Made by a program: the position numbers and the translations under genes
Part shown: one piece after another, positions 12,911-54,479 of the stretch
Layout: the number at the start of each line of letters is the position of its first letter
Numbering within the stretch: the first letter of the stretch is position 1
The notes under the pieces: generated by a model
Seen by the model: only the letters and a program-made list of their open reading frames with translations
The model's database searches: none
What the model was told of the DNA's origin: nothing
Origin: a virus
Reading direction: 5' to 3' (one strand)
IMG/VR virus record: IMGVR_UViG_3300010392_000634
Length of the DNA stretch: 64,000 nt

Positions 12911-12920
12911 GAGGAAAATT

Positions 12921-13412
12921 ATGAGTACAACACCTAAACTTGGCGAGCTAACAACTGAAACAGAGCGTGATGCCATCCACCTTGCAGTAATTCCGTTGAT
13001 TGCCTCACATAACACGACACCGGGACAGAACGTTGGTCTGAACGAATACGGACAGGCAGATGCGGATGCATACCCACATGTTGGTATTGTTGACCCATAT
13101 TTGAAGAAGATGGTTTTCAAAGGACAGAAGATGTGGGTATGTTTGTATCCTGATACTGTAACTGGTATGAAGCATCACTGGGAACATCCTGTATTCCGTA
13201 AACTGGAAGAGGCATATGGTGTACGTGCACCTGAAGCTACTCTTGAAGAGATAACTAAACTATCTGAAAATGAGTATGACTCAGAAGTGGACGACTTTGA
13301 AATTTGGTGCTGCGGGTCAGACGCACCGGAGCCTGAAGACAAATACGAAGAAGATGAAGACGACACTTGGTCGTGTTGTCCAGATGATGATGACGAATGG
13401 TCTTGCTGTTAG
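12921..13412 (+). CDS. paralog-family protein A1 (DAIHLAV ... PGQ ... GIVDPYL ... KHHWEHP), Cys-rich acidic tail
   Basis: Shares ordered motifs with 17385..17948 and 50421..51026; C-terminus WCCGSD ... WSCCPDDDDEWSCC. Confidence 0.55.
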   Translation: MSTTPKLGELTTETERDAIHLAVIPLIASHNTTPGQNVGLNEYGQADADAYPHVGIVDPYLKKMVFKGQKMWVCLYPDTVTGMKHHWEHPVFRKLEEAYGVRAPEATLEEITKLSENEYDSEVDDFEIWCCGSDAPEPEDKYEEDEDDTWSCCPDDDDEWSCC

Positions 13413-13421
13413 GAGATAATT

Positions 13422-13754
13422 ATGGACTTAAGAATCCCCCGTCCAAGCGAAGTATACACTACTGATGTTTGTAAAGCAGTAAATGCTATTGTGAAATTCA
13501 TCTATCGTAACTCAACTGGTTGCGAATTTGAAGAACATCGTGGAACAATCGAATTCAAGAAAGCACAAATTGAAGCCATTGCTCTTGAAGATGGTTATAG
13601 GCGTGATTGCAGGTTTAGTTCCCACACAATGTCGGCTGCTTGCCGTATCATTGCCAACCACGGCTGGCTCTTCTATGAATATGGTAATTCAGAAGACCCA
13701 AGTGAGGATACTTACTATTTAGAACCAGATGAGGAATCATATGAAACCGATTAG
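13422..13754 (+). CDS. hypothetical protein
   Basis: 110-aa ORF. Confidence 0.5.
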   Translation: MDLRIPRPSEVYTTDVCKAVNAIVKFIYRNSTGCEFEEHRGTIEFKKAQIEAIALEDGYRRDCRFSSHTMSAACRIIANHGWLFYEYGNSEDPSEDTYYLEPDEESYETD

Positions 13755-14061
13755 ACCAGACGAATTAAAATTAGAATTGTACAGAGAAAAGTTTCTGTAT
13801 TCGTTTGACAAAGTAATTCAAAATAACTATAATGGCAAACGTGTAAAGATATTTCACAGTGATATTTCACAACAGTTGTGTTATGACCATAATGGTGATG
13901 TGAGAGACTTTTTTGTATCAATGTCGTATAAGGCATTTGATGGGTTCCTAGATAATTATAGACCATACTGGAATATAGACTACAAGAGACCGTGGTGGTC
14001 AGACGATTATCGTATTATAATGGCTCCGAAGGAAGATTATGAGTATCCCAAAAAGACCTGA
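13741..14061 (+). CDS. hypothetical protein
   Basis: Start taken at ATG 13741, in frame with ORF 13729..14061. Confidence 0.45.
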   Translation: MKPIRPDELKLELYREKFLYSFDKVIQNNYNGKRVKIFHSDISQQLCYDHNGDVRDFFVSMSYKAFDGFLDNYRPYWNIDYKRPWWSDDYRIIMAPKEDYEYPKKT

Positions 14062-17148: not shown

Positions 17149-17392
17149 ATTAGAGTGCGAAGTAGAAGTGTGTTCTGATATAGAAATGATTGAATGCGGC
17201 TTCAGACAGGAATGGGTTACAGCTAACATTGACGAAGATAGTGTTGATGTGACTAGTGGGGCAGGATGTGGTAGTCCTTGGATGACCGCTACTATAAAAA
17301 TTGGGGATAAGACTCATAATATCCGTTACAACATTAAAGATTTAATCAAAAAACTGTATGATAAAGCGAAAGAAGGTGAGTTCGATGAATGA
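17132..17392 (+). CDS. hypothetical protein
   Basis: Start moved to ATG 17132, in frame with ORF 17087. Confidence 0.45.
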   Translation: MSVPYKLECEVEVCSDIEMIECGFRQEWVTANIDEDSVDVTSGAGCGSPWMTATIKIGDKTHNIRYNIKDLIKKLYDKAKEGEFDE

Positions 17393-17948
17393 ACTAGGAA
17401 AACTGATTGAAGGTAGTGAGTGTCGTGATGCCGTACACGTTGCTATTATCCCTATGGAAGCCTCAGAGATGCTACGACCCGGACAAAGGGTAGGAATCGT
17501 CTCAGATGGCATTGCTGGGCCTTCTAGCAAGGCTCTGGGGGTTGTGGACCCGTTCCTCGATGACGTTGTACCAAAGGGAAAGCAATTTTGGCTGTGCCTC
17601 TTTCCAAACAGTATTAGTGATATGCGTCACGCATGGGTTCATCCTGATTTCAAAGATGATGTTGCGGAACATGTTGATGAGCACGTACAAGGTGTTATTG
17701 AAAATACAAAAGTTAAGCAAAAAGAAATCGAAGAATGGATGAAAAAACAGGCGGACATTCTTGGTTGTGATGTCTATGACCTGCTTGATATCAATGGAGA
17801 TATTCTATCTGGTGAATATATCATTACTTATATGAATGAATCTGCTAGAGATTACTGGGCACAAATTTACAATGAATATCAAGAAAAAATCGAAGATTAT
17901 CATGGTATCCCATTTGATGATATTGGTGGTTTTTCTTGTAGTTGCTAG
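17385..17948 (+). CDS. paralog-family protein A2 (DAVHVAIIP ... PGQRVG ... GVVDPFL ... RHAWVHP)
   Basis: Paralog of 12921 and 50421; C-terminus GGFSCSC; start at ATG 17385 with an ATGA overlap. Confidence 0.55.
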   Translation: MNELGKLIEGSECRDAVHVAIIPMEASEMLRPGQRVGIVSDGIAGPSSKALGVVDPFLDDVVPKGKQFWLCLFPNSISDMRHAWVHPDFKDDVAEHVDEHVQGVIENTKVKQKEIEEWMKKQADILGCDVYDLLDINGDILSGEYIITYMNESARDYWAQIYNEYQEKIEDYHGIPFDDIGGFSCSC

Positions 17949-17956
17949 GAGGTAAC

Positions 17957-18244
17957 ATGAGTGCTGATAATTGGGGCGACTGCCCAAAATGTAAAGTACT
18001 GGTAGCTGAAAAGAACGCGGCAGAGATTGAGTCTGTAAATAAACTCTATGGAACGGTCACTGTCGAAGACTTTAAATATAAACTAAGTAGAGCCGGTTCC
18101 CATGAATATGAACATGGGACACTGCGTGAAGACTACCAGATTTGCACTACTAGTCATGGTCAATTTTACATTGGTTATGAATGTTATTGTGCTAAATGTG
18201 GTTTCGAACATAAATTTAAACACAGTGAGGATATTAAACTATGA
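17957..18244 (+). CDS. hypothetical zinc-ribbon-like protein
   Basis: RBS TAGGAGGT; CPKC ... CAKCG motif. Confidence 0.45.
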   Translation: MSADNWGDCPKCKVLVAEKNAAEIESVNKLYGTVTVEDFKYKLSRAGSHEYEHGTLREDYQICTTSHGQFYIGYECYCAKCGFEHKFKHSEDIKL

Positions 18245-18576
18245 ATTTTCAAGAAGCAATACAGGTTTTACGTGTTGGGGGACAAATCCGTAGACAATCA
18301 TGGAATAACAAATCATATCGGTGGTTTGCGAGAACATTTGACGCTACAATTAGAAGTGCCTGCAATCAATATAAGTCTAACAATGCCGCCCTGATAAGTG
18401 TGGCTGACTGTGCTGCAGAAGATTGGGAAGAGTACAAGGAGCCTACTGAGGCGTTGGTAGAGCGTATTGAAAAGTTGGTCGCTGCGTTCGAGCGAGGTGT
18501 AGTTCCGTCCGATATTAATACAGCGTACATCGTCAATGTTTTAAAACAGGCAGTCGAAGCTATAGACGTACCGTGA
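18241..18576 (+). CDS. hypothetical protein
   Basis: 111-aa ORF. Confidence 0.5.
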   Translation: MNFQEAIQVLRVGGQIRRQSWNNKSYRWFARTFDATIRSACNQYKSNNAALISVADCAAEDWEEYKEPTEALVERIEKLVAAFERGVVPSDINTAYIVNVLKQAVEAIDVP

Positions 18577-21001: not shown

Positions 21002-21380
21002 TAAAGAAAATATCAACTCATATGAATACACTAACGTTATGGTAGGACCATTAACTTTTACCTTAATTCCTTTTCTGATTGGTGCTTTACCTATTATATT
21101 TGAATCACCAACATTCTTGTGGTTTGCTTTCTGGTCATTCCTCTTGTTTTTTCTTTCTGCTTTATTTGGATTTATTGCCGGATGCATTGGGCTTTCTAGT
21201 ACTGGTGGATATGGCAATGATATGCTAGTAGATAGAATTCCACGCTCTGAATCAATCACGTATATTGTCTGTTGTACTATCTTTCCTTTACTGTGGATTG
21301 CTCTATTTATTGGATGTGTAAAAGGATTGTTACGGCCACTGTCACATATTTTTAAGTCTTTGATGAAGGAAGAAAAATGA
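20982..21380 (+). CDS. two-helix membrane protein, FWP-family-like
   Basis: RBS GAGGAGG; C-terminal motif TIFPLLWIALFIG. Confidence 0.5.
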   Translation: MNTMIINKENINSYEYTNVMVGPLTFTLIPFLIGALPIIFESPTFLWFAFWSFLLFFLSALFGFIAGCIGLSSTGGYGNDMLVDRIPRSESITYIVCCTIFPLLWIALFIGCVKGLLRPLSHIFKSLMKEEK

Positions 21381-22585
21381 ACAGGCGAGAATTTTTAGGT
21401 GTAACTAGCTTAGGTGTACTTGGTGTCGGTCTTAGTTTCGGTAATGTATCTGTTTCTGAAGAGCAGAAGAAAAAGGGGAGCGTGATTTACATCACACTTG
21501 GTGGTGGTGCTTCACACGTTGAGTTCTTCAATCCTGCTCCAGATGCTCCATCAGAGTATCGCTCAGTTACTGGTAACATCTATACTAATACGCCGGGATT
21601 ACACTTTGGTAGTCTTATGCCTAATCTGGCCAAAATGTCAGACCAGTTTACAGTAGTAAAATCATTCACTCATCGTGACTTCAACCACGCTAGTGCAACA
21701 CACTTAGTTCAAACAGGAAAATATAATACACGTACTCCTGATACACAAACATGGCCAAGTTATGGGAGTGTTGTAAGCGAACAACTTGGTGCTGTTGGTA
21801 AGACTGGGCTACCTAGTTATATCAAACTGAACAAGACAGACCATGACGGGGCTGCTTGGCTAGGATTAGACCATTCTGGTTTCAATGCATCTAAGGAAGG
21901 TTTAGGCGACATGATTATGAAGGTGTCCGAAGAGAGATTCCTTCGCCGTGAGCAAATGTTGTCAGAGATTGATAAGAGTGGCAATATTCGTGACCCTTGG
22001 CTTAAGTTGCGTGACCAAGCTGTGGGTGTTTTAATGGGTGATGCATCAAAAATCTTCAACATTACCAAAGATACGATGTACAATGACTATAAAGACTCTC
22101 AGTTCGGCAAAGACTTGTTAACTGCCAGACGTCTTGTTCAAGGTGGAGCTGCTTTTGTTAAAGTCAGTAATCCGGGCTGGGATATGCACTCTAATATCGA
22201 GTCTGGACTAAAATCTAAACAAGGTGAGATTGATAAGTATCTTGCTATCCTTATTTCTGACTTAGAGAATAAGGGTCTTAATGAAGACGTGTTAGTTGTA
22301 TTCACCACAGAGTTTGGAAGGACACCGAAGATTAATCCTCAGTCTGGACGTGACCATTGGGCAAAAGTGTGTAATCTGATGCTTTATGGTGGAAGATACA
22401 ACGGTGGATTCATTGGAGAAGTTGACAGAACCTCAAGTGAGGTAGTTAGCGAACCAGTAACACCTGCTGACTTATGTAAGACTGTGCTAGACCATTGTGG
22501 TATTGCTGACAATGCACATACTATTGATAATTTGCAACGTCCTAGAATGTTTGTAGAAGATACAGCTAAAATAATTGGAGTATGA
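21377..22585 (+). CDS. Tat-signal secreted protein, DUF1501 / sulfatase-superfamily-like (tentative)
   Basis: N-terminus MNRREFLGVTSLGVLGV carries a twin-arginine motif; 402 aa; the family assignment is from memory and is weak. Confidence 0.5.
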   Translation: MNRREFLGVTSLGVLGVGLSFGNVSVSEEQKKKGSVIYITLGGGASHVEFFNPAPDAPSEYRSVTGNIYTNTPGLHFGSLMPNLAKMSDQFTVVKSFTHRDFNHASATHLVQTGKYNTRTPDTQTWPSYGSVVSEQLGAVGKTGLPSYIKLNKTDHDGAAWLGLDHSGFNASKEGLGDMIMKVSEERFLRREQMLSEIDKSGNIRDPWLKLRDQAVGVLMGDASKIFNITKDTMYNDYKDSQFGKDLLTARRLVQGGAAFVKVSNPGWDMHSNIESGLKSKQGEIDKYLAILISDLENKGLNEDVLVVFTTEFGRTPKINPQSGRDHWAKVCNLMLYGGRYNGGFIGEVDRTSSEVVSEPVTPADLCKTVLDHCGIADNAHTIDNLQRPRMFVEDTAKIIGV

Positions 22586-23196: not shown

Positions 23197-23707
23197 AGAT
23201 TATGTTATAATCAATGCCCTTTTTGGGTTTTTCCCATTAGTTTTATTTTTTTTATTTTGTATCATATTCTTGTTCTTGGATATTGGCTTGCCGTTATTTG
23301 TACTCTTGTTGTTATTTGTCATTGCAGCTTATAGTGCAAGCGTGATATCACTTATTGTCTCTGCATGTTATCATATACATACTTCAAGAGTAGACTATGA
23401 CCTTGAAAAACCTCGACTTGATGATTACAGAGACGGTTATGACCACGATTGGGGTAAATACAATGTTGATGTAGCAGAATATGAAGCTACAAGAAAATAT
23501 GCACCAATCGAAAAAATGAGTAGAACAGACGTTATTAAACTAATGGTTACATTGACATTTTGGCCAGTATTTGTGTTAAAATGTATTTTTGACTGGCTTG
23601 TATCATTATTTAACCCAATTATCAAAACTTTTGTTTATATTATAGGAGAAAAGAATGAAGGCGATTCGGATGCCGAAGATAGAACAGTTTCGGACAGTAG
23701 TCAGTAA
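23180..23707 (+). CDS. membrane protein, FWP family
   Basis: Contains TFWPVFVLKCIF; start at ATG 23180. Confidence 0.5.
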   Translation: MNVPNKDYVIINALFGFFPLVLFFLFCIIFLFLDIGLPLFVLLLLFVIAAYSASVISLIVSACYHIHTSRVDYDLEKPRLDDYRDGYDHDWGKYNVDVAEYEATRKYAPIEKMSRTDVIKLMVTLTFWPVFVLKCIFDWLVSLFNPIIKTFVYIIGEKNEGDSDAEDRTVSDSSQ

Positions 23708-24719
23708 CATCAAGCGTACAGCTCAATTTGTTGGGCTGGATGAAAATGGAGATGCTATTGTTGATAGAGATGCCAAGATGCCAACAGTTACTTTTACTGG
23801 TACTGTAAAACTACATGGAACTAATGCATCTATTGTAAGAACTTCTGATGGTCAGATTTATCCCCAGTCTAAGACTAATGTTATTAGCATGGAAAAAGAT
23901 AATGCTGGCTTTGCTCAGTTTGTCCACTCTAATCACGAAGTACTTAAGGACATGTTGGACTGTATTGCATACGACCTAGAACGCAATGCAGCTATGTATA
24001 AAACTCCATGTGAGTTTGACCCTGAGTCTAGTATTACAGTTTATGGAGAATGGGCTGGTGGAAACATTCAAAAAGGATGTTCTTTAAATGGTCTAGATAA
24101 GATGTTCTTCATTTTTGCTTGTAAAGTTACCCCAAACGATGAAGAAAAGCAGTCTTACTGGATTCAATCTGGGCATCAACATATTAGACCAAGCCGACAC
24201 GATGACATCAATACTCATAACATTTATGACTTTGATACATATACAATTGATATCGATTTTAACGAGCCGGACTTATTTACTGAAGAGCTTGAGCGTATCA
24301 CTCTTGCTGTAGAGGAAGAGTGTCCTGTCGCTAAGATGTTCGGTGTCGAGAAAGGTGTTGGTGAGGGTGTAGTATGGACTGGTTGGTACAATGGTAACAT
24401 CTATAGATTCAAGGTTAAGGGAGAAAAGCACTCAGTAACTAAGGTTAAGAAGTTGGTTGTTGTAGCTCCTGAAAAGATTGAGTCTATGCAAAAGTTTGTT
24501 GAGTATGCCTGCACGCGTAACCGTTATGAGCAGGCCATCAATGAAGTTATCGGTGATGAAGAAAAGGCGATGAACCGTCTTGGTGATGTCATTCGATGGG
24601 TCCAGAAAGATATTATTGATGAAGAAACTGATGTTTTGACTGAATCTGGCTTGACACACAAAGATGTAGCGAGTAGAATTGCTACACAGGTCAGAACATG
24701 GTATCAGTCTGAATTATAA
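23655..24719 (+). CDS. RNA ligase, T4 Rnl2-like family
   Basis: Nucleotidyltransferase motif I KLHGTN; N-terminal domain typical of Rnl2; RBS AGGAGAAAAGA. Confidence 0.6.
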   Translation: MKAIRMPKIEQFRTVVSNIKRTAQFVGLDENGDAIVDRDAKMPTVTFTGTVKLHGTNASIVRTSDGQIYPQSKTNVISMEKDNAGFAQFVHSNHEVLKDMLDCIAYDLERNAAMYKTPCEFDPESSITVYGEWAGGNIQKGCSLNGLDKMFFIFACKVTPNDEEKQSYWIQSGHQHIRPSRHDDINTHNIYDFDTYTIDIDFNEPDLFTEELERITLAVEEECPVAKMFGVEKGVGEGVVWTGWYNGNIYRFKVKGEKHSVTKVKKLVVVAPEKIESMQKFVEYACTRNRYEQAINEVIGDEEKAMNRLGDVIRWVQKDIIDEETDVLTESGLTHKDVASRIATQVRTWYQSEL

Positions 24720-24736
24720 AAAAATGGAGAGTAACT

Positions 24737-24934
24737 TTGAGTTTAATATTTGAAAGTATTGATTCTGAAGGAAATGACGCTGAGATGCGTGCTACAAGAG
24801 TTCCATATGGAACTGATAGGCGTGATAGATTACGTATTAGCGTTTCTCTTCCGTGGAACGATGGTCCACGTGACATTGAACTCACTAGAAAACAAGCCGA
24901 TGAACTAGTTAAACTGATTGGAGAAATGCAATGA
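24737..24934 (+). CDS. hypothetical protein (TTG start)
   Basis: 65-aa ORF with GGAGAG RBS. Confidence 0.35.
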   Translation: MSLIFESIDSEGNDAEMRATRVPYGTDRRDRLRISVSLPWNDGPRDIELTRKQADELVKLIGEMQ

Positions 24935-25254
24935 TTATTGACAGTAAAACAAAACGTGTAGTTGACTGCTTTCGTTCAGACGACTATGCTGGACTTGAGT
25001 ATGGTGACTATGCCTTCTATTATGGTTACGAAGAGACTGTTCCTAAGCACGATTTAGAAAATGGTGAGTGGGCTTTCGTTGCCGACTACAAAGGTAATGA
25101 GTTGTGTCGTCTGACTGTAGATGATTTTAAAGAATATGTTTGTAGAAATACATTCGAAAGGCTTGACAAATGGAATGTTGAGCATGTATTATTAACCGGA
25201 GTTGGAATTGTTTTAAATAACGAAAAATTTCACCCAGAAAGAAAGGCAATGTAA
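24931..25254 (+). CDS. hypothetical protein
   Basis: 107-aa ORF. Confidence 0.5.
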   Translation: MIIDSKTKRVVDCFRSDDYAGLEYGDYAFYYGYEETVPKHDLENGEWAFVADYKGNELCRLTVDDFKEYVCRNTFERLDKWNVEHVLLTGVGIVLNNEKFHPERKAM

Positions 25255-25610
25255 TGAAATGTTTCCCAGAATCAGTTGGCGTTTTTGGTCCCGTTTTGTC
25301 CCTCACAGCAAGTTTAATTTGTTTTGTAACTCTATTTGAGGCTAGTCTCATTGGTGTACTGTTTTTGCTGGTTGCAATCAGTTGCTTCAATTTGTTAGCT
25401 GCGATTCTATTTTTTACTTCTGAGTCATTATGTAGTAGTAGTCCACGTATTAATGATTACAATAAAGTTACAGTTGCTACAGTATTATTTTCTTCTGTAT
25501 GCTGGCCAATCGGAATCTTAATTGGACTATTTGCTCTGCTCAAAGTTGCTGCAGGACCACTTATGTTAGTTGTTAATAAGTTTGCAGATACTAAGTCAGA
25601 TACAGAGTAA
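25254..25610 (+). CDS. membrane protein, FWPIGI family
   Basis: Contains VCWPIGILIGLF. Confidence 0.5.
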   Translation: MKCFPESVGVFGPVLSLTASLICFVTLFEASLIGVLFLLVAISCFNLLAAILFFTSESLCSSSPRINDYNKVTVATVLFSSVCWPIGILIGLFALLKVAAGPLMLVVNKFADTKSDTE

Positions 25611-25638
25611 AATCTCAATTATATAGAAAGAATTAAAA

Positions 25639-26763
25639 GTGAAACCAGTTAAAATTTACGCTGAAAATATTGAAGAGACAGCATTAGAGCAGTTTAATTC
25701 AGCTTTAGAGTTGGATTGTGTCACTCGTGCTGCACTTATGCCTGACGCTCATACTGGGTACAGCCTACCAATTGGTTCTGCTGTTGAGTCTGACCAGATT
25801 GTTTTTCCAAGTTGGGTTGGATATGATATCGGTTGTGGTATGTCTGCAATCCCCACCAGCTTCACGAAAGAAAAGGTAGAACAGAACTCAAAAGATATTT
25901 TTCATCAGATTTATCGTGATGTTCCTACTGGATTCACTGAGCATGACGATAAGCAGTTTTGGAATGAGGCTACTCATTTCGATGCTACACCTGAGCTAGA
26001 AGAACGATTCTGGACTGGAAATGCACAGAACCAGCTTGGTACTCTTGGTGGTGGTAACCACTTCATTGAAGTAGGATACGATGAGAACAATCAGGTATGG
26101 ATTATCATTCACTCTGGTTCTCGTAAGCTGGGACATCGTACTGCTGAGCGATATATGAAAATTGCTGCTGGACAGGACCCAGAAGACCGGAAGAAAGCAA
26201 AAGAAGGTCACTACGGTTTCGCTGTTGATTCAGAAAATGGTGAGAATTACATCAAGGACTTGAATTACTGTTTACAGTATGCTTTAGCAAACCGTCGTCA
26301 TATGATTGAGAATGTTATTCAAAGCATCTCACGTAAAGTAGGTGGCGGCTATGGAGAATGGGACCGTTTCATCAATCGTAACCACAACCATGCCGAGGAC
26401 CGTAAAGACGATGGTAAATGGATTCATCGTAAGGGTGCTACACATGCTGAGAGTGGCATGGACGGTGTTATTCCGGGCAATATGCGTGATGGTTCCTTCA
26501 TCGTAGTTGGTAAGGGTAATCCAGACTCTCTGTATTCCAGTTCTCATGGAGCTGGGCGTGTACTCTCTCGTAGTAAGGCACGTAAGACTCTGAATGTCGA
26601 TGACTTCGTTAAAGATATGGAAGGTATCACTGCTCGCGTTGAAGAGAAAACTCTTGATGAGTCTAGTAGTGCCTATAAAAACATCTTTGAGGTGATGGAC
26701 CTACAGAAAGACTTAGTCAATGTTGTTACTCACGTCAAGCCAATTATCAATGTGAAGGGATAA
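25639..26763 (+). CDS. rtcB: RNA-splicing ligase RtcB
   Basis: GGGNHFIEVG, HSGSR and HNHAED motifs; 374 aa; GTG start. Confidence 0.8.
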   Translation: MKPVKIYAENIEETALEQFNSALELDCVTRAALMPDAHTGYSLPIGSAVESDQIVFPSWVGYDIGCGMSAIPTSFTKEKVEQNSKDIFHQIYRDVPTGFTEHDDKQFWNEATHFDATPELEERFWTGNAQNQLGTLGGGNHFIEVGYDENNQVWIIIHSGSRKLGHRTAERYMKIAAGQDPEDRKKAKEGHYGFAVDSENGENYIKDLNYCLQYALANRRHMIENVIQSISRKVGGGYGEWDRFINRNHNHAEDRKDDGKWIHRKGATHAESGMDGVIPGNMRDGSFIVVGKGNPDSLYSSSHGAGRVLSRSKARKTLNVDDFVKDMEGITARVEEKTLDESSSAYKNIFEVMDLQKDLVNVVTHVKPIINVKG

Positions 26764-28735: not shown

Positions 28736-30013
28736 ATGCTTGAGTGGCTGACAACTTATTATACAGACTTTATCGCATTCAGTAAATCAAATCCTTTATT
28801 TGCCGGTATTATAAGTGTTTGGGGATTAGGAGTTGTAACATTCTGTTTACGGACTGTTCCGAGTAAAATTTTTAATTTCATTTACAGACAGTGTACTACC
28901 AACTTAGTTCTTAATAGTTACGATAGTATCTATCATGAGTTCTTACAATGGGTGTCTGAAAACAATATGCACTCATTTGTGCGTGACCTTAACTTCAATA
29001 ATAGAGGCGTGTGGAGTGAAGGTGTTCCAATGATTAGCATAGGATATGGGAAAACGATTTTCCTATTCAAGAGACGACTCTTCGTTCTTCATAGATTCAA
29101 AGAAGAAGCTAATCAGACAATGAGACCGAAAGAAACAATCAAGATTACTTTGATTGGTAGGTCGCATCAAATTTTTAGTGAGCTATTCGATGTTATACAT
29201 GAAAGTCAGGAAGAAGAAAACTCAATCAGCGTCCATACTTGGAAAGAGGGATGGAATTACACTGCTTATCAACCAAAGCGTGATTTAGATACTGTAGTTG
29301 TAGAAGAACATATTAAACAAGATATTCTCACCTGTATTGATAATTTCATTGGTGATTCTGATTGGTATTTTAAAAATGGAATACCATATCATCTTGGGAT
29401 TATGTTTCATGGACCAAGTGGAACAGGTAAGACGAGCTTAATCAAAGCTATCTGTGCTAAATATGACCGTCCATTATATATTATTCATCTTTCTAGAATG
29501 AGCGATGATACTCTTGAAACAGCTTTGGCTGAGATTCCTATCGGTGCTGTGGTTGCAATCGAAGATATTGACACCGCTAACTTAGGTAAAAGAAATATCA
29601 GTAATAAAATTACGACAATTAAACAAAGTGGTACAATGTCTCTTGTTCGAGGAACGAGCCATGGAGACTCTGAGGCTTCTTTGACACTCGGTGGTGTATT
29701 AAATGCTCTTGATGGAATTACTACATCAGAAGGTAGAATTTTAATTGCTACCACTAATGTTTTAGACTCGCTTGATGAGGCGTTAATTCGCCCCGGAAGA
29801 TTTGATTTGACAAAAGAAATAGGTTATATGACAGACGATACTCTACGTACGTACTTGGGAAGATTTTATCCGTATGATTTTTCCAAATGGTGTGTTAATG
29901 ACAATGTTAAACCTTGTGATGTTCAGAAGTTAGTTTTTGATAACCGTAACTCGCCTGACAATGTACTTGCAGCAGTGGCACATAGGTGTGATAATGGAGG
30001 ACTTGAAGATTGA
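28736..30013 (+). CDS. AAA+ ATPase, BCS1-like
   Basis: N-terminal TM helix; Walker A GPSGTGKTS; Walker B VVAIEDID. Confidence 0.7.
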   Translation: MLEWLTTYYTDFIAFSKSNPLFAGIISVWGLGVVTFCLRTVPSKIFNFIYRQCTTNLVLNSYDSIYHEFLQWVSENNMHSFVRDLNFNNRGVWSEGVPMISIGYGKTIFLFKRRLFVLHRFKEEANQTMRPKETIKITLIGRSHQIFSELFDVIHESQEEENSISVHTWKEGWNYTAYQPKRDLDTVVVEEHIKQDILTCIDNFIGDSDWYFKNGIPYHLGIMFHGPSGTGKTSLIKAICAKYDRPLYIIHLSRMSDDTLETALAEIPIGAVVAIEDIDTANLGKRNISNKITTIKQSGTMSLVRGTSHGDSEASLTLGGVLNALDGITTSEGRILIATTNVLDSLDEALIRPGRFDLTKEIGYMTDDTLRTYLGRFYPYDFSKWCVNDNVKPCDVQKLVFDNRNSPDNVLAAVAHRCDNGGLED

Positions 30014-30963
30014 ATAAACATGAATTAATTGGAAAAGAGTTTAAGGTACTGAGTCATGGTAGTATTATGCTAGTTGACTATATGGGTAGTGACGAAGAGA
30101 TTGAGAATGCTGCTCGTATTTCATACGGTGAAGGTACAAGACCAGTAAGTGAGACGCGTACGTTGCTACGTTACCTCAAGAGACACTGGCACACTACACC
30201 ATTTGAGATGGCTGAGCTGAAATTTAAGATTAAGATGCCTATGGATGTAAACCGTCAGTGGATTCGACACCGTACTGCTAACGTTAATGAGTACAGTACA
30301 CGCTATTCAAATCCTATTGATGATACGGATACTACACCTGTATGGCGTAAGCAAAGCACAAACAACAAGCAGGGTAGTGACGGGAAAGTCACAGAATGGC
30401 CTGAAGGTTGTGAGTGGGAATGTGAAATAGAATGGCATGATACTCCCAGCAGTTTTTTATCTGAAATGGAACAGGAGACTATTAAAGCGTGTAAAAGTTT
30501 TTATGATATTACACAGCAATTTGGGGTTGCTAAAGAGGTGTCACGCAAACATCTACCTTTGAGCACCTATACTGAAATCTTCTGGAAGTGTGACCTGCAT
30601 AATATCATGCATTTTCTACGCTTACGTTGTGACTCACATGCACAACAGGAGATTCGTGAGTACGCTAACATTATGGCTGGTATTTGCAAAGAGTTATTCC
30701 CTTTAAGTATGGAAGCGTGGTACGATTACGCTCATATGTCTCGTAACTTCAGTCGTCAAGAGATGAAAATTTTGCAACACGTACTGGATAGAGAACAGAT
30801 TCGTAATTCTGGTGTACTAAAAACTCTGGCTCAACAGGTTGGATTGTACGACCCTAATCGAAAAAGTAACCGTGAGTACGATGAATTTGTGAAAAAATTT
30901 GCAGATAATTACTCTACTAGTATTGACTCTGAGTTTGAATTGCCTTATAATAAGGAAGACTAA
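30010..30963 (+). CDS. thyX: flavin-dependent thymidylate synthase ThyX
   Basis: ThyX motif RHRTANVNEYSTRYS (RHR ... S.R). Confidence 0.8.
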   Translation: MNKHELIGKEFKVLSHGSIMLVDYMGSDEEIENAARISYGEGTRPVSETRTLLRYLKRHWHTTPFEMAELKFKIKMPMDVNRQWIRHRTANVNEYSTRYSNPIDDTDTTPVWRKQSTNNKQGSDGKVTEWPEGCEWECEIEWHDTPSSFLSEMEQETIKACKSFYDITQQFGVAKEVSRKHLPLSTYTEIFWKCDLHNIMHFLRLRCDSHAQQEIREYANIMAGICKELFPLSMEAWYDYAHMSRNFSRQEMKILQHVLDREQIRNSGVLKTLAQQVGLYDPNRKSNREYDEFVKKFADNYSTSIDSEFELPYNKED

Positions 30964-47287: not shown

Positions 47288-48031
47288 ATGTGGAAGGTAA
47301 TTCTTTTTCTTTTGCTAATCTCACCATGTATGGCAGACCAAGGCTTAATTGCCAAGAAACCATATGATGATGAAATATATGTCTGCAAGAAAAGAACTCT
47401 CTATATTGCTGTTGACAAAACAGAGCTAACTACGTTAGAATCTAGCTTAACTAAAAGATGGATTGATAGAGTCAATCCGAAAGTTCTAGCAACACTTGAT
47501 TCGGATTTTATTTCTGACAAAATGTTGGAATATGACTTACGTGTTGCGAACATCAAGAGGCATTTTGATGTCAAATTTGTAGACTGGTATGACCAGAATA
47601 TTACCTACTACCCAGCTTATAAAATTGGAAGTGTTTGGCATCCATTGCCTAAAGGTGAGTATGAATCTCATAGGTGGTTGCAATTTTGGGAGTGGTTCAT
47701 TCGTGAGTGGAATCTTCTAGATAATCATGAGCGATGGGATATCAAAAAATGGTCCATAAGAAATGAAGTATACAATCAACGTACAGCAGACAGAAAAAAG
47801 TTTGTTGAAAATTTAGTCTCAAATAGCGATGGTAGATACAGTTACGTTGAATATGGATGCGACGAAGTAGACGAAATTGGTGACTGTGGTTATTATGTCG
47901 TATTCGATAATAATACACAAGAAGGTGTTACCATATTTGATATTGGTTATGTCCCAAAACATATGCCAGCAGAGCCAGTGGAACCAGTAAGTACTGAATG
48001 TCCATTGGACCCAAAATACAAAATAAACTAA
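47288..48031 (+). CDS. secreted hypothetical protein
   Basis: Signal peptide MWKVILFLLLISPCMA; 247 aa; lies inside the tRNA array. Confidence 0.55.
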   Translation: MWKVILFLLLISPCMADQGLIAKKPYDDEIYVCKKRTLYIAVDKTELTTLESSLTKRWIDRVNPKVLATLDSDFISDKMLEYDLRVANIKRHFDVKFVDWYDQNITYYPAYKIGSVWHPLPKGEYESHRWLQFWEWFIREWNLLDNHERWDIKKWSIRNEVYNQRTADRKKFVENLVSNSDGRYSYVEYGCDEVDEIGDCGYYVVFDNNTQEGVTIFDIGYVPKHMPAEPVEPVSTECPLDPKYKIN

Positions 48032-48034
48032 TAT

Positions 48035-48107
48035 GGGGTTATAGCTCAATTGGATAGAGCAACGGTCTTCTACACCGTAGGTCGGGGTTCGAGTCCCTGT
48101 AGCCCTA
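48035..48107 (+). tRNA. tRNA-Arg (anticodon TCT)
   Basis: Acceptor GGGGTTA/TAGCCCT, D-arm GCTC..GAGC, anticodon stem ACGGT/ACCGT with loop CTTCTAC. Confidence 0.8.
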
Positions 48108-48112
48108 CTTAA

Positions 48113-48187
48113 CTCGCTGTAGCTCAATTTGGTAGAGCGGCGGTCTGAAGAGCCGCGTCTGTAATGGTTCGATTCCATTTAGCGGGA
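48113..48187 (+). tRNA. tRNA-Phe (anticodon GAA)
   Basis: Acceptor CTCGCTG/TAGCGGG, anticodon stem GCGGT/GCCGC with loop CTGAAGA, T-arm AATGG-TTCGATT-CCATT. Confidence 0.7.
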
Positions 48188-48214
48188 CTTTTAAAAAAAA
48201 TACGACAGATGGCA

Positions 48215-48243
48215 TTGACAACATGATTCAACTCATGTACAAT
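48215..48243 (+). promoter_or_regulatory. sigma70-type promoter (TTGACA, 17 bp, TACAAT) inside the tRNA array
   Basis: Consensus -35 at 48215-48220 and -10 at 48238-48243 with a 17-bp spacer. Confidence 0.45.
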
Positions 48244-48255
48244 ATGCAAAACAAC

Positions 48256-48325
48256 GTGGAAGTAGCTCAGTTTGGTAGAGCAGGGTTCGCGACCTGTGTC
48301 GGTGGTTCGATTCCACCCTTCCCGG
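48256..48325 (+). tRNA. atypical tRNA-like gene (70 nt, short anticodon arm; anticodon undetermined, possibly CGC)
   Basis: Canonical D-arm TAGCTCAGTTTGGTAGAGC and T-arm GGTGG-TTCGATT-CCACC, but mismatches at 1-72 and 2-71 and only ~19 nt between the D and T arms. Confidence 0.4.
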
Positions 48326-48384
48326 CTTGCAGAAGAACAAAGGGTGTGTTCGTACAATGGGCACATTTTTCTTCTGCTAAACAT

Positions 48385-48458
48385 TGGAGATTGGTGAAGA
48401 GGACTAACACACTCCCCTCATAAGGGAATATTCACGGGTTCGAATCCCGTATCTCCTA
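48385..48458 (+). tRNA. tRNA-Met/fMet/Ile2 (anticodon CAT)
   Basis: Acceptor (T)GGAGAT/ATCTCC(T), anticodon stem CTCCC/GGGAA with loop CTCATAA, T-arm ACGGG-TTCGAAT-CCCGT. Confidence 0.7.
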
Positions 48459-48594
48459 TTAGAATGTTCTCCGCACGAGAACGCGGCATTAAGCGGGAGG
48501 GGATACCCTTGACATACGGAAGACTGCTATAGAAGTCCAAGTATTTTCGGTAATAGAACGACTTACCCTCATGCGGAGAATATTTTATACATAT
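48459..48594 (+). other. structured non-coding spacer with a 9-bp inverted repeat (TTCTCCGCA ... TGCGGAGAA)
   Basis: Repeat arms at 48467-48475 and 48562-48570, about 90 nt apart, between two CAT tRNAs. Confidence 0.25.
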
Positions 48595-48663
48595 CGCAGA
48601 TGGTCCGGTGACCAGCCAAGCCTCATAAGCTAGGATAGACAGGTTCAACCCCTGTATCTGCCA
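48595..48663 (+). tRNA. short tRNA-like gene with CAT anticodon loop (69 nt, minimal D-arm)
   Basis: Acceptor CGCAGAT/ATCTGCC, D hairpin GGTC-CGGT-GACC, loop CTCATAA, T-arm ACAGG-TTCAACC-CCTGT. Confidence 0.4.
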
Positions 48664-48817
48664 TTTTTGTAGGAGTTAACTTAACAGCTACATGCTATAG
48701 CTTAATAGTTATCTTCTGCATTATGTCTAGGAGTTGCGGTAGTTGGTTACTACACTCTCTTATAAGCAAAAGTCCTTAAGAGAAACCAAAAACAACTCTA
48801 TTGGACATAAAATTTTC

Positions 48818-49432
48818 TCAAATTCGAGATATAAAATGCTGTTCTCTATGACAATTAGCACATAGAAGTTGACATTTATCTAACTCGGATTTGATTTTAA
48901 TATGATGCTTCTCCCAAGAAGTGTGTCTGGCTTTTGATATATTAAAGTCTTTTTCAGTTGGGTCAACATGATGAAAGTCTAATGCCCCTTGACATTTATC
49001 GTAACCGCATTTTTCGCATTTGCCGCCCTTGTATTCAATACACTTTTGTTTCATAAGCTGATGTCTTTCTATTGCTTTTTCGGTATTACATGTTTTGCAA
49101 GTAGGATGATATGTGAATTTGATTTTACTCGTTCTTTTATGAAAGAATGATATATCTTTTTCTATATTGCATTTGTTACAAACTTTTGTTTTTAGTTCAG
49201 TATAAACTTTTTTATAAGCACCGATGTCGAAACATTTTTTACAATAAGTTAAATTTGCTGCAATTTTTTCTTGACAAATTTTACATTCTTTTGTAAGATG
49301 TCTTTTAACATGAATTTTGTTATTATATGTTGCAGAACATGAGCGGCTACAAAAGTGATTAGGGCTTTTTTTAATTTCACTTGGTAGTTTTTTAAATTCC
49401 GTGTTACAGTTTAAACAATTGACCTGTGGCAT
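48818..49432 (-). CDS. HNH homing endonuclease
   Basis: The only convincing minus-strand gene; Cys-rich zinc fingers and DFHHVDP ... CANCHREQH HNH motif; sits inside the tRNA array. Confidence 0.65.
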   Translation of the reverse strand: MPQVNCLNCNTEFKKLPSEIKKSPNHFCSRSCSATYNNKIHVKRHLTKECKICQEKIAANLTYCKKCFDIGAYKKVYTELKTKVCNKCNIEKDISFFHKRTSKIKFTYHPTCKTCNTEKAIERHQLMKQKCIEYKGGKCEKCGYDKCQGALDFHHVDPTEKDFNISKARHTSWEKHHIKIKSELDKCQLLCANCHREQHFISRI

Positions 49433-49496
49433 GATATTCCTTCGTGTTTGTTATATTGTTGTTAGTTCGTCTCCCACTATATTATACACCTTTTTC

Positions 49497-49568
49497 GCGT
49501 CTAAAGTGTTATTGGCTGCATTTCTGGCTTCCAACCAGACGGTCAGGGTTCGAGTCCCTGTAGACGCA
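49497..49568 (+). tRNA. tRNA-Gly (anticodon TCC)
   Basis: Acceptor GCGTCTA/TAGACGC, anticodon stem TCTGG/CCAGA with loop CTTCCAA, T-arm CAGGG-TTCGAGT-CCCTG. Confidence 0.65.
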
Positions 49569-49837
49569 CTTTCGGGCTATTTTCGGATTTGCCTAGATAA
49601 CGGAAGAATTAACTTCAAGTAGTGGTTGATGGACAGGCCACTTTAAAAGTCTATCAAAAAGTAACTGCAAAACAGTTCGCAATCGCTGCGTAATAGCAGC
49701 TAATGATGCCTGACTGAGCTATAAATCATGTCAAAACAGGTAGAAGCTGTAAAGCCTGTGGATTTATCTCAGCAACAACATATACTTTGCCGGTGAAGTC
49801 ATCGGATAAACTTGTAAACGTTATTTGAATAAATTAT

Positions 49838-49871
49838 ACTAGAAACGACGGTTCGAATCCGTCATAGTCCA
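49838..49871 (+). other. orphan tRNA 3'-half-like element (T-arm plus acceptor 3' strand)
   Basis: GACGG-TTCGAAT-CCGTC-ATAGTCC-A with no complementary 5' acceptor within 150 nt upstream; lies immediately upstream of the HNH gene at 49886. Confidence 0.3.
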
Positions 49872-49885
49872 ATAGATATTGATAT

Positions 49886-50431
49886 ATGTACACAAAATTA
49901 GTTTGTAACTATTGTGGTAATTACTTCGAAAAGAAAACCAACGAATATAATAGATGCGTCAAAAAAGGACAAAAGAATTATTTTTGTTCTAGGGACCATG
50001 CAAACAAATTTTTACCACGGCCACACTTAAAACCGAGAATGGAAAATATCATTCCCGGCTCATTTAAAGATGAATATTCTGATTTTAAGTGGTATATGAA
50101 GGTTGTAAGAAATCGATGTAATAAAAAACAATACGAAACAGATATTAGTTTAATGTTTTTAAAACATCTTTGGAAAGAACAAGAAGGTAAATGTGCATTA
50201 ACTCAAATACCTATGCAATTAAGAACTCATGATAGTTCAGATAAGTTGGAATTTTATACTGCATCGTTAGACAGGATAGACAACACAAAAAGATATACAA
50301 AAGATAATGTTAGATTTGTCTGTGTTATGACTAACTATGCGAGAAATACTTTTTCTGATAATGATTTTTATGAGTTTATAAAACTAGCATCAAAAGCTAT
50401 TTTAGGAAAAGGAAAAAAGGATGGCAATTAA
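49886..50431 (+). CDS. HNH-family homing endonuclease-like protein
   Basis: N-terminal CNYCG ... FCSRDH zinc finger shared with the other HNH genes; C-terminal SLDRIDNTKRYTKDNVRFVC. Confidence 0.45.
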   Translation: MYTKLVCNYCGNYFEKKTNEYNRCVKKGQKNYFCSRDHANKFLPRPHLKPRMENIIPGSFKDEYSDFKWYMKVVRNRCNKKQYETDISLMFLKHLWKEQEGKCALTQIPMQLRTHDSSDKLEFYTASLDRIDNTKRYTKDNVRFVCVMTNYARNTFSDNDFYEFIKLASKAILGKGKKDGN

Positions 50432-51026
50432 CAAACAACCCACTCTAGGAAAAAAAGCACAAGAAGCCGGTATCAAAGATGCAGTGCATGTTGCTATCGT
50501 TTCGTGTCGTGCTGGTGGACCCCTCTCTCCCGGTGATAGGGTGAAACTCAACGAGTATAGAGAAGCAATCAAGACATATAGTAAAGACTATATCGGAGTT
50601 GCTGACCCTTTCATTAAGGGAGGTATTGACAAAGGAAGTTTCTTCTGGCTTGTAATGAAGCCTAATGAAACTGAAGCAGTTCGGCATGTTTGGGACCACG
50701 AATTGGACTTTTCCGCTCCAGACCGTGAAGTTCAGGAATGCAAATGGATAAAAGAGTACGCAGACGACCTTGGGGTGAGCTATCAGTTCTTGATGGATGC
50801 TGCAAGAAAAGCTGTCAATGGAGAGTCTTCTCCTAAGTACGAAGGAACAAAAACTCAGGAAGAAATCGAAGAAGTATTAGATGACTTCTATGACTTCTGG
50901 TATTACTGGAGCGAAGAAACTGGATACGAGTTTGAAAACTGTGGGTCTGCGTGTTGTCCAGAATACGAACATCCTTCCTCGTTTAGTATATTTGACTATT
51001 CTGAAGCTAAGAGTGAAGAATCTTAG
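50421..51026 (+). CDS. paralog-family protein A3 (DAVHVAIVS ... PGDRV ... GVADPFI ... RHVWDHE)
   Basis: Third paralog; C-terminal GSACCPEYE Cys motif. Confidence 0.55.
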   Translation: MAINKQPTLGKKAQEAGIKDAVHVAIVSCRAGGPLSPGDRVKLNEYREAIKTYSKDYIGVADPFIKGGIDKGSFFWLVMKPNETEAVRHVWDHELDFSAPDREVQECKWIKEYADDLGVSYQFLMDAARKAVNGESSPKYEGTKTQEEIEEVLDDFYDFWYYWSEETGYEFENCGSACCPEYEHPSSFSIFDYSEAKSEES

Positions 51027-51037
51027 ACTTTAGATAA

Positions 51038-51111
51038 CAACCCATAGTGTCAATGGTCTAGCACATTACTCTGATAAGGTAATAGTCGTGGTTCGAGTCC
51101 ACGTGGGTTGA
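51038..51111 (+). tRNA. tRNA-Ile (anticodon GAT)
   Basis: Acceptor CAACCCA/TGGGTTG, D-stem GTGT/GCAC, anticodon stem TTACT/GGTAA with loop CTGATAA. Confidence 0.8.
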
Positions 51112-51115
51112 CTTT

Positions 51116-51186
51116 CGCATCTTAGTTTAAAGCTAGAATACCTACCATGAGGGTAGGAGACGGTGGTTCAATTCCATCAGGTGCGA
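51116..51186 (+). tRNA. atypical tRNA-like gene (71 nt; loop CATGAGG, anticodon possibly TGA with A33)
   Basis: Acceptor CGCATCT/AGGTGCG pairs 7/7; tiny D-arm AGTT-TAA-AGCT; anticodon stem CCTAC/GTAGG; T-arm GGTGG-TTCAATT-CCATC. Confidence 0.5.
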
Positions 51187-51249
51187 CTTTAAGAGATGTT
51201 AGAAAAATAGGTCGTCTATCAACCTTTGTTCTCCGGCATCTCTTTATAA

Positions 51250-51322
51250 TGTGGAGTAGCTCAATTGGCAGAGCACTTGTCTTGTAAACAAGAGGTTGCG
51301 GGTTCGATGCCCGTCTCCACAT
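51250..51322 (+). tRNA. tRNA-Thr (anticodon TGT)
   Basis: Acceptor TGTGGAG/CTCCACA, D-arm GCTC..GAGC, anticodon stem CTTGT/ACAAG with loop CTTGTAA. Confidence 0.8.
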
Positions 51323-51327
51323 CTTAT

Positions 51328-51400
51328 GCCTCTGTAGCTCAATGGTTAGAGCAAGAAACTCTAAACTTCTTGGTTGCAGGTTCGAATCCTGTCGGGGGCA
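51328..51400 (+). tRNA. tRNA with anticodon CTA (putative amber suppressor)
   Basis: Fully canonical 73-nt tRNA: acceptor GCCTCTG/CGGGGGC, D-arm GCTC-AATGGTTA-GAGC, T-arm GCAGG-TTCGAAT-CCTGT. Anticodon stem AGAAA/CTTCT has an A31-C39 mismatch and the loop is CTCTAAA, so positions 34-36 read CTA. Confidence 0.6.
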
Positions 51401-51584
51401 CTGTTTTTATTTTTAACAAAACTATCTTCAAAGGAGAAAAGTAATGTTGTAGGTTGACGAAAAATGGTTAGCACATGGTGAATTAGTTTGGAGTTTCTAT
51501 CAGAAGCTCTTAAAAGGTGACTGGGATAATTTAAGACTCCCAGAGTGGTTTGTAGAGCATCACGAAATACTCGTATCTCTTCAG

Positions 51585-52259: not shown

Positions 52260-52277
52260 ATTAAAGGACCAACTATC

Positions 52278-52715
52278 GTGTTAGTCTCGAAGTACAATCC
52301 AAAATTTGATGGTTGTTTACATGTACAACAATACAAACAACTATCTGAACTTTATCTGGAAAATTTTAATGCTCCAGTATTGACATACAACGAGTTTGTC
52401 GATAGAATCAATTCAGACGATGTCACTATTTACACTTTCGAAGTGGGTGACAAAGTAGTGGCAACAGCTTCAGGATATTTATACCCGTCTCTGTTACACG
52501 GTGGACAGCCTAGAATGCAGATTGAAAATGTCTGCACTAGAAAAGAGCATCAAGGTAATGGATATGCATCACATTTAATCGGATTGCTCATAGAGCTGGC
52601 AGAAGAAAAAGGGTGCTATAAAGTATCACTAAGCTGTTCTGACAAAAACTTGGACTTCTATCAGAATAGAGGTTTCAAACAACATGAACACACTATGAGG
52701 ATTGATTTGGTATGA
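52278..52715 (+). CDS. GNAT family N-acetyltransferase
   Basis: Acetyl-CoA-binding motif HQGNGYASHLIG; GTG start. Confidence 0.6.
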   Translation: MLVSKYNPKFDGCLHVQQYKQLSELYLENFNAPVLTYNEFVDRINSDDVTIYTFEVGDKVVATASGYLYPSLLHGGQPRMQIENVCTRKEHQGNGYASHLIGLLIELAEEKGCYKVSLSCSDKNLDFYQNRGFKQHEHTMRIDLV

Positions 52716-53773: not shown

Positions 53774-53788
53774 CTTAGGAGAAATACT

Positions 53789-54471: not shown

Positions 54472-54479
54472 CTTTATTT

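Follow-up and report, generated by a model that had tools for sequence, protein, structure and literature searches.

Three phage copies of a protein family combining a predicted β-tulip domain with a C-terminal Cys pair, a possible metal or redox module

Three genes of a viral genome, termed A1, A2 and A3, encode members of one protein family, the N-terminal domain of which is assigned to the β-tulip fold; both the membership and the fold assignment can be regarded as nearly certain. As the leading, still tentative, explanation it is proposed here that the three proteins are anciently diverged versions of a two-module unit, formed by the N-domain (module N) and a Cys pair (module C) that could cooperate in metal or redox chemistry. 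The cooperation as such, between a His/Asp cluster of the N-domain and the Cys pair, is possible and is advanced with greater reserve. The term "window" is used below for the whole stretch of DNA analyzed, 64,000 nucleotides in length.

The homology of the three proteins is far past chance in pairwise BLASTP comparisons (A1–A2, E = 4e-25, 43% over 89 aa; A1–A3, E = 6e-17; A2–A3, E = 4e-20), and a search with the family HMM detected exactly three copies in the window. The initial annotation, which had described three homologous copies, is thereby upheld. The genes and their parts are as follows.

12921..13412, plus strand: A1, 163 aa; N-terminal β-tulip-like domain and acidic Cys-rich tail
12921..13205, plus strand: N-domain of A1, residues 1–95
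12969–12989, plus strand: A1 motif DAIHLAV
13020–13037, plus strand: A1 motif PGQNVG
13083–13103, plus strand: A1 motif GIVDPYL
13122–13139, plus strand: A1 motif GQKMWV
13170–13190, plus strand: A1 motif KHHWEHP
13287..13409, plus strand: acidic tail of A1, probably disordered, residues 123–163, with three W-(S)-C-C units
13305–13313, plus strand: A1 tail unit WCC
13368–13379, plus strand: A1 tail unit WSCC
13398–13409, plus strand: terminal A1 tail unit WSCC
17385..17948, plus strand: A2, 187 aa; canonical form of the family
17385–17660, plus strand: N-domain of A2
17661–17717, plus strand: unconstrained linker of A2
17718–17945, plus strand: helical C-module of A2
17937–17945, plus strand: CSC of the C-terminal end GGFSCSC of A2
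50421..51026, plus strand: A3, 201 aa; member of the "ACCPE" subfamily, within a tRNA island
50421–50714, plus strand: N-domain of A3
50715–51023, plus strand: C-terminal region of A3
50952–50957, plus strand: vicinal Cys pair of A3 (GSACCPEYE), followed by a 22-residue tail

All five motifs listed for A1, which had been described as common to the three proteins, recur in the same order in A2 and A3; the second motif of A3 is PGDRVK and does not end in VG as had been stated. The Cys strings quoted earlier (WCC, WSCC and terminal WSCC in A1, the GGFSCSC end of A2, GSACCPEYE in A3) were read correctly.

Each of the three ORFs is preceded by a purine-rich ribosome-binding site. For A2, the start is assigned to 17385 in preference to another ATG further upstream, at 17358, which agrees less well with the N-terminus typical of the family. 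As had been observed, each copy stands at the 3' end of an unrelated gene: A1 starts 11 nt downstream of a PseB-like dehydratase gene (Polysacc_synt_2), A2 overlaps a small ORF, and A3 overlaps an upstream gene of an HNH/EndoVII-type endonuclease (phrog_3322/1035/3118). The stop codons of A1 and A2 overlap the Shine-Dalgarno sequence of the next gene (TAGGAG). All three genes stop with TAG, and a gene for a tRNA with a CUA anticodon is located nearby; the TAG stop was rejected as a property of the family (17/78 versus 157/941 in neighbouring genes, p = 0.27). A scan for promoters and terminators gave no enrichment over shuffles and no dedicated signals at A1, A2 or A3. The window represents a non-structural region, with genes for a radical SAM protein (1887–2825), the PseB-like dehydratase, HD, Tad2-like and DUF1501 proteins, RNA ligase, RtcB, a BCS1-like AAA ATPase, ThyX, glycosyltransferases, an SPFH protein and a trypsin-like protein, together with the tRNA island. 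The Tad2-like domain belongs to a gene neighbouring the family gene and is not part of the family itself.

All three copies match phrog_11912 (E from 1e-24 for A3 to 3e-30) and phrog_17232 (E from 2e-14 to 2e-18), which are one and the same family. The two PHROG entries contain no function, fold or architecture, and the Cys-pair rule, split forms and cellular members described below are not recorded in them. Pfam, NCBIfam and PADLOC gave no useful match for the three proteins, the PADLOC matches being short and spurious (E ≥ 2e-4 over 34 residues). Searches against PDB sequences and profiles with full-length and N-domain profiles returned nothing relevant, a nucleotide search of the phage collection gave no match, and no paper on the family was found in the literature searched. 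The earlier statement that the family cannot be placed is therefore valid for Pfam, NCBIfam, PADLOC and PDB sequences; it does not extend to PHROG 11912/17232, where the family is catalogued with function unknown, nor to its very large size and the β-tulip fold of its N-domain.

When 1.84 billion representative proteins were searched exhaustively with the family profile, 3,865 clusters at 50% identity were collected with E ≤ 1e-3, 2,079 of them with E ≤ 1e-30; nearly all have lengths of 170–200 aa. N-terminal extensions of longer homologues contain no recognisable domain and are probably mis-called starts. In a census of weak Pfam matches among 121 members, the only recurrent ones were 13 weak matches to the proteasomal-ATPase OB domain (best E 0.009), discarded as caused by a generic L-PG-x-V hairpin. 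Weak matches of A3 to Argonaute-associated nucleases (Pfam E 0.0025, PADLOC 2e-4) cover 34 residues only and were treated as spurious.

In a typical member, such as A2, a linker that varies between proteins joins an N-domain of about 90 aa to a helical C-module, and the exact end is Φ-(S/T)-C-x-C. According to the alignment of 121 sequences, the positions that are invariant or conserved in at least 90% of members (A2 numbering) are L4, G5, D15, A16, H18, A20, A26, L30, P32, G33, G52, V54, D55, P56, L58, F68, L72, P74, H82, W84, H86, C185 and C187. The N-domain elements D-A-x-H, G-x-V-D-P and H-x-W-x-H, with columns invariant or at least 90% conserved in alignments of 121 and 32 sequences, are present in A1, A2 and A3, and the invariant columns of A1 are D17, A18, H20, A22, A28, G55, P59, H85, W87 and H89. 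The segment HHWEH was considered as an inverted zincin motif (HxxEH); this was rejected, the Glu being only 31% conserved.

The AF2 model of A2 (mean pLDDT 90.5) contains a five-stranded N-domain, a helical C-module with pLDDT 96–98 and a short terminal strand, 182–184; with a pTM of 0.56 its inter-domain geometry is undefined, and the linker is less confident. In the model of A1, pLDDT reaches 95–99 over residues 21–80, which are followed by one or two helices and by a tail of low pLDDT (ranges of 45–62 and 45–52, in part below 50). Confidence drops over the H82-W84-H86 segment, to a pLDDT of about 62 in the A2 model and of about 78 in that of A1.

The five-stranded core was recognised as a β-tulip by structure comparison with established members. 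Fold matches include the HVTV-1 capsid stabilisation protein, the base of φ29 gp8.5, Sf11 gp40, YSD1_16, Pam3 cement, the FCWL1 and TW1 decoration proteins, E217 gp24, mycobacteriophage minor capsid proteins, Borrelia BB1 decorators, λ gpD and the P23-45 auxiliary protein, as well as the MoeA/gephyrin E domain, herpesvirus Tri2/Tri1 and the φ29 gp12 C-fragment. This set corresponds to the β-tulip class as defined by Stone et al., and the top fold matches of the A2 model are identical to the decoration-protein/MoeA set. In BFVD there is one strong match, to a member of the family in an N4-like phage of Achromobacter, followed by weak matches to DUF2190 and decorators. At the sequence level, Pfam and PDB sequence and profile searches gave no link between the family and β-tulip decoration proteins. 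The β-tulip of the MoeA/gephyrin E domain is a subdomain of a 400-aa enzyme that has no motifs in common with the family, and the family lacks a molybdopterin context.

The second constant element, present in about 96% of members, is a pair of Cys residues at the C-terminal end or close to it. Of 265 family proteins, 238 have the exact CxC end and 14 have CC, either as the A3-type GYEFENxG(S/T)ACCPE or as a CC at the very end; CxxC, or a CxC that stops just short of the end, occurs in a few, and about nine short proteins have no pair. The window contains three of these variants: A2 ends in CSC-COOH, the pair of A3 (ACCPE) lies 22 residues from the end, as part of the GYEFENxG(S/T)ACCPE sequence also found in its subfamily relatives P0005, P0015, P0028, P0037 and others, and A1 has three CC pairs including a terminal one. 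The strings that had been described as a different Cys cluster in each protein do differ, as variants of one family-wide C-terminal Cys pair. The acidic tail that had been ascribed to all three belongs to A1 only, where it is long and apparently disordered, with 18 D/E and six Cys among the last 41 residues; the C-termini of A2 and A3 form a folded helical domain.

Attachment of the pair to the N-domain varies. In some short forms the N-domain is followed by a short acidic linker and a terminal pair (…DYEDCAC, …DIDDGCRGC, …YDDECRGCDG, …YYDGCSGC), and A1 is built on this design; its own form is a triplicated W-S-C-C arm. For short forms that lack Cys, the C-module is encoded by a separate gene next door. 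Among 37 cellular loci drawn from bacterial and archaeal genome assemblies, N and C are split in 28, lying in adjacent genes and different frames, fused in eight and cut by the contig end in one, so that both modules are present in 36 of the 36 informative loci. Separate C-module proteins begin with a TIGR02996 domain. Split forms also occur in viral contigs, including ones with ATGA stop-start overlaps and one in which an HNH endonuclease gene is inserted between the N and C genes. A search of 5.8 billion proteins with the C-module only gave a single match, P0266, the short profile being too weak.

The fused-or-adjacent arrangement argues that the two modules work together. The short acidic forms, taken with the C-module gene beside the Cys-less forms, show that the constant partner of the N-domain is the Cys pair and not the helical domain, and forms such as "N-domain + acidic linker + ...DDECRGC" show the minimal unit to consist of the N-domain and a tethered Cys pair.

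The family was found in 66 of 50,697 phage records, with one copy per record and all annotated as hypothetical. The carriers are N4-like Schitoviridae of Klebsiella, Erwinia, Pseudomonas, Achromobacter, Shigella and Stenotrophomonas; the Rak2-like jumbo phages GAP32, CBB, Serratia BF and Erwinia SNUABM; ΦM12-like phages of Sinorhizobium; and Caulobacter CcrColossus and CcrPW, Achromobacter Motura and Xanthomonas XbC2. A single copy is present in 64 of 65 viral loci and in each isolate, so three per genome are unusual. When 269 matches of the A1 N-domain are ranked, A2 is 145th and A3 263rd. The copies are thus nearer to proteins of other phages than to their siblings, which points to three old lineages and no recent local duplication. 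Paralogy, as claimed initially, stands in the broad sense; the accompanying idea of local diversification of the three copies gives way to old lineages or separate acquisitions. No close relative of A1 was detected among 5.8 billion proteins, the best match having at most 57% identity, in the N-domain only.

Family genes are located on Planctomycetota chromosomes as well, with split N and C proteins in Gemmata and Rubripirellula among others. In multi-megabase contigs the N/C pair is flanked by ordinary cellular genes (α-L-fucosidase, GSDH, P-type cation ATPase, PPK2, CorA, MscS), with no phage genes nearby, which indicates genuine cellular members of the family. Beyond the family's own split C-module, no conserved neighbour was found in 65 viral loci (1,604 ORFs forming 1,348 clusters) or in the 37 cellular loci; the family gene is stand-alone.

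The preferred explanation can be formulated as follows. Module N, of about 90 aa, is a predicted β-tulip bearing the invariant polar cluster D15-A-x-H18, D55-P56 and H82-x-W84-x-H86 (A2 numbering), and module C provides the two C-terminal or nearly C-terminal Cys residues, mostly as Φ-(S/T)-C-x-C-COOH, otherwise as CC or CxxC. The pair is attached in four ways: by a helical domain (A2, A3), by a short acidic linker, by the long acidic, apparently disordered tail of A1 with its three W-(S)-C-C units, or through the protein of the next gene. The proteins are taken to be cytoplasmic, as suggested by the absence of a visible signal peptide or hydrophobic N-terminus in the family sequences, and their genes are stand-alone in early or accessory regions of large virulent phages, whereas Planctomycetota chromosomes have them as a cassette of two genes. 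On the β-tulip, the His/Asp cluster could form a transition-metal or redox-active site; a metal site on the N-domain is plausible from the conserved residues. The tethered Cys pair could then be mobile and act as a partner of this site, completing, servicing or gating it, and during infection the small metallo/redox module could act on, or bind, a conserved cellular component.

We infer the metal/redox chemistry, the contact between N and C and any target; the main argument for a metal or redox site with the Cys pair as its mobile partner is the minimal natural form, which is an N-domain with a tethered Cys pair. The idea is further suggested by the fact that CxC, CC and CxxC pairs at flexible C-termini are typical of metal hand-off and redox arms. 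In the mobile C-terminal arms of MerA (CC), insect TrxR (SCCS-COOH), CCS domain 3 (CXC) and DsrC, a Cys pair on a flexible tether services a separate active or metal site. The ...WSCC-COOH of A1 and the ...CSC-COOH of the family resemble these arms in form alone, the partner domains being unrelated and homology absent. In the A2 model the terminal strand 182–184 probably pairs with strand 145–147 of the C-module and not with the N-domain; since it apparently packs on the C-module, a contact of the N-domain with the Cys pair is only putative. Pfam and NCBIfam searches and the Pfam census of 121 members gave no match to a known metal-binding family or motif, and the conserved His, Asp and Trp could instead belong to a surface that binds protein or nucleic acid, or to an interface between subunits of an oligomer.

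Four other explanations were considered; in descending order of likelihood they are an AcrIIC1-like inhibitor, a small enzyme, a capsid decoration protein and a RiPP-type precursor. According to the first, which is improbable, the β-tulip would inhibit a host enzyme purely by binding to it, in anti-defence or host takeover and free of catalytic or metal chemistry, and the copies would hit different host factors or variants. The β-tulip is documented as a protein–protein interaction module and as the fold of AcrIIC1, likewise a small non-structural phage protein, which provides a precedent for a β-tulip acting off the capsid. The family genes lie in accessory regions. A syntenic relative of this phage with 70–85% nucleotide identity (L005) retains an ortholog of A2 and, two genes further downstream as in the window, the Tad2-like gene, but has 122 bp in place of window positions 12911–13546, which contain A1; its presence or absence between close relatives marks A1 as accessory. 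In phage CBB the homologue, CBB_514, directly follows a σ70-like factor within CBB_390–546, suspected by the authors to be an early, host-takeover region (PMC5259590).

The comparison of A2 with its L005 ortholog bears on this inhibitor role in both directions. Synonymous sites are saturated (pS about 0.76–0.81). The linker retains 24% identity and the C-module 51% (pN 0.34), so the latter evolves about four times faster than the N-domain, a point in favour of an inhibitor, and the GGFSCSC end is retained. The N-domain keeps 90% amino-acid identity (pN 0.08) despite the saturation, which implies a very strong purifying constraint on it. The initial annotation had suggested anti-defence proteins or host-factor mimics. 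Circumstantial evidence for this exists in the accessory location, the Tad2-like gene near A2 and the AcrIIC1 fold precedent; against it stand the purifying selection on the N-domain, residues invariant over thousands of clusters and cellular homologues among housekeeping genes.

An enzymatic role is rather less probable still. In this case the His/Asp residues would be the catalytic centre of a hydrolase or redox enzyme, with a small molecule or the end of a macromolecule as substrate, and the C-terminal Cys pair would be a swinging redox or metal-transfer arm, comparable to those of MerA, high-Mr thioredoxin reductase or CCS. The invariance pattern suits such an enzyme as it does the preferred two-module explanation, the Cys pair is on a flexible or variable tether or supplied in trans, and the cellular homologues suggest a general biochemical activity. 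However, a β-tulip of 90 aa is not known to serve as a catalytic domain, no enzyme family was matched by sequence or fold, and no substrate-related neighbour genes were found in the 65 viral and 37 cellular loci.

A divergent structural β-tulip binding the capsid surface as decoration or cement protein is very unlikely. The established decoration and cement proteins (λ gpD, P74-26 gp87, TW1 CSP, HVTV-1, φ29 gp8.5 base, YSD1_16; DUF2190-type) have a similar fold and no conserved polar motifs, whereas the family has invariant D, H, W and C residues, a terminal Cys pair, non-structural gene locations and cellular homologues, the latter on bacterial chromosomes away from prophages. In the PDB searches sequence similarity to any solved decoration protein was absent, and no DUF2190 or HDPD match was obtained at E ≤ 1 in Pfam for 121 members. 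The family gene is found in early or middle regions and never in a structural module, being among small early or middle genes in S6, ΦM12, CcrColossus and BF (the homologues of Erwinia S6 and CcrColossus are gp057 and gp248), and A1 is dispensable between close relatives. The virion evidence is indirect, as it comes from other phages (CBB and an Erwinia phage) and not from the phage of this window. CBB_514 is not among the 55 virion proteins of CBB identified by MS (PMC5259590, Table 4), though decoration proteins are abundant and its neighbours CBB_494, 496 and 536 do appear in the list. Nor do the LC-MS tables for the Erwinia phage list its homologue, 00533; the label "putative structural protein" in that phage belongs to the gene after 00533. 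As far as the available proteomes go, the family proteins are most likely non-virion.

A RiPP-type precursor, with a long leader, a Gly-Gly site, a Cys-rich core (…RGG|FSCSC) and a maturase such as the radical SAM protein, is suggested by RGG right before F(S/T)CSC in many members, the radical SAM gene in the window and the Cys-rich tail of A1, and is scarcely credible, given that GG occurs in only about 30–36% of sequences, what precedes the core in the A2 model is a domain folded with high confidence and not a leader, no conserved adjacent maturase, protease or exporter exists in the 65 viral and 37 cellular loci, and the radical SAM gene is 10 kb off and unlinked in other genomes.

The β-tulip fold is already known, and the family is catalogued yet uncharacterised. 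As far as searched, the combination is new: a β-tulip with an invariant His/Asp/Trp cluster, a C-terminal Cys pair that is obligatory whether fused or split, and members in both phages and cells. Thousands of "hypothetical" genes of N4-like, Rak2-like, ΦM12-like and φCbK-like phages, and of metagenomes, belong to this family, for which Pfam has no entry. As argued here, the fold of capsid decoration has been reused non-structurally far beyond the single example of AcrIIC1. It is conceivable, if unlikely, that the members form a two-component class of mini-metalloprotein or redox protein shared by Planctomycetota and virulent phages, in which a catalytic or metal-holding β-tulip is served by a Cys-pair arm, either fused or provided in trans, with the three versions of this phage manipulating a conserved metal, redox or sulfur process of the host during takeover. 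Should the metal/redox idea be true, a new type of small metalloprotein would take part in phage takeover; should it fail, the family would remain a good target for anti-defence and host-factor screens, because culturable model phages have a single copy.

The first of the three family copies, A1 (12921-13412, + strand), occupies the variable spot directly after the PseB-like dehydratase gene. An indel separates close relatives at this site: 636 bp of the window (12911-13546), comprising A1 and the start of the next gene, are replaced by 122 bp with a 49-aa ORF in the syntenic phage contig L005 (5440-5561). A promoter-like site follows further downstream:

13805-13833, + strand, perfect σ70 consensus (TTGACA, 17 nt spacer, TATAAT) inside ORF 13729-14061

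Promoter-like sites overall showed no enrichment over shuffled sequence.

The second copy, A2 (17385-17948, + strand), precedes a Tad2-like gene by two genes, an arrangement also kept in L005. The genes concerned are as follows:

17942-18244, 100-aa protein with Zn-ribbon-like CxxC pairs, between A2 and the Tad2-like gene
18241-18576, Tad2-like (Thoeris anti-defence 2) protein (PF11195, E 7e-8)

Other genes of the window include an RNA ligase/RtcB pair with several genes near it, and a radical SAM gene:

1887-2825, radical SAM protein (PF04055, E 6e-8)
21377-22585, DUF1501 protein, near the RNA ligase/RtcB pair
23655-26763, RNA ligase (PF09414) and RtcB (PF01139), close together
28736-30013, BCS1-like AAA ATPase, near the same pair
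30010-30963, ThyX, near the same pair

The RNA ligase and RtcB, which are retained in L005 as well, may constitute a tRNA-repair set. The radical SAM protein was considered as a possible maturase of Cys-rich tails; this was dismissed because other genomes show no linkage between it and the family.

The third copy, A3 (50421-51026, + strand), is located in a dense tRNA island, where it is scattered among the tRNAs together with several small ORFs and endonuclease genes:

47036-59860, tRNA island (26 tRNAs by ARAGORN, 22 confirmed by Rfam)
49574-49874, tmRNA (RF00023, 68 bits, E 4e-25)
49886-50431, free-standing endonuclease gene of the HNH/EndoVII type (phrog_3322, E 4e-21)
51328-51400, tRNA with a CUA anticodon (Rfam tRNA, 66 bits; labelled 'Pyl' by ARAGORN)

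The endonuclease gene overlaps the start of A3 by 11 nt. Separately, on contig L082, where the family is split into an N gene and a C gene, an HNH-like gene stands between the two.

Outside viruses, the family is represented by a two-gene cassette in assemblies of Planctomycetota, Verrucomicrobiota and other groups (genome loci L088-L118; for example, L118 5986-6755, L108 5980-6772 and L100 247-991), flanked by ordinary cellular genes. A protein of ~108 aa consisting of the N-domain is encoded first, followed by a protein that combines a TIGR02996 domain with the C-module and ends in F-x-C-x-C. The C-module of this subfamily carries two additional cysteines (…SCxNNxxxCD…), giving four in total.

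Multi-copy forms are rare outside the window. Two adjacent family genes, one ending in …SCRGCD, are found on a 347-kb viral contig (L022 5734-7114), and one 404-aa protein (P0121) contains two tandem N-domains and a degenerate C-module. In two further viral contigs (L041, 6224-6288; L015, 3703-3719) the gene is interrupted: in one, the frame shifts by +1 at a homopolymer (A9), and in the other there is an in-frame TGA; sequencing error, pseudogene formation or recoding could each account for this.

The CUA tRNA, 300 bp downstream of A3, is of the amber-suppressor type, with both U33 and A37 in place, and A1, A2 and A3 all terminate at TAG (13410-13424, 17946-17960, 51024-51026). TAG serves as 20 of the 84 stops within the window, and therefore genome-wide recoding is not evident there; nor is TAG enriched across the family (17/78 versus 157/941, p=0.27). 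The shared stops are probably mundane, since those of A1 and A2 overlap the Shine-Dalgarno sequence (TAGGAG) of the following gene. If TAG were suppressed, A1 would be joined in-frame through three codons (E-I-I) to ORF 13422-13754, yielding a 277-aa fusion, while A2 would gain four residues (the suppressed codon and three more) and A3 seven (the suppressed codon and six more).
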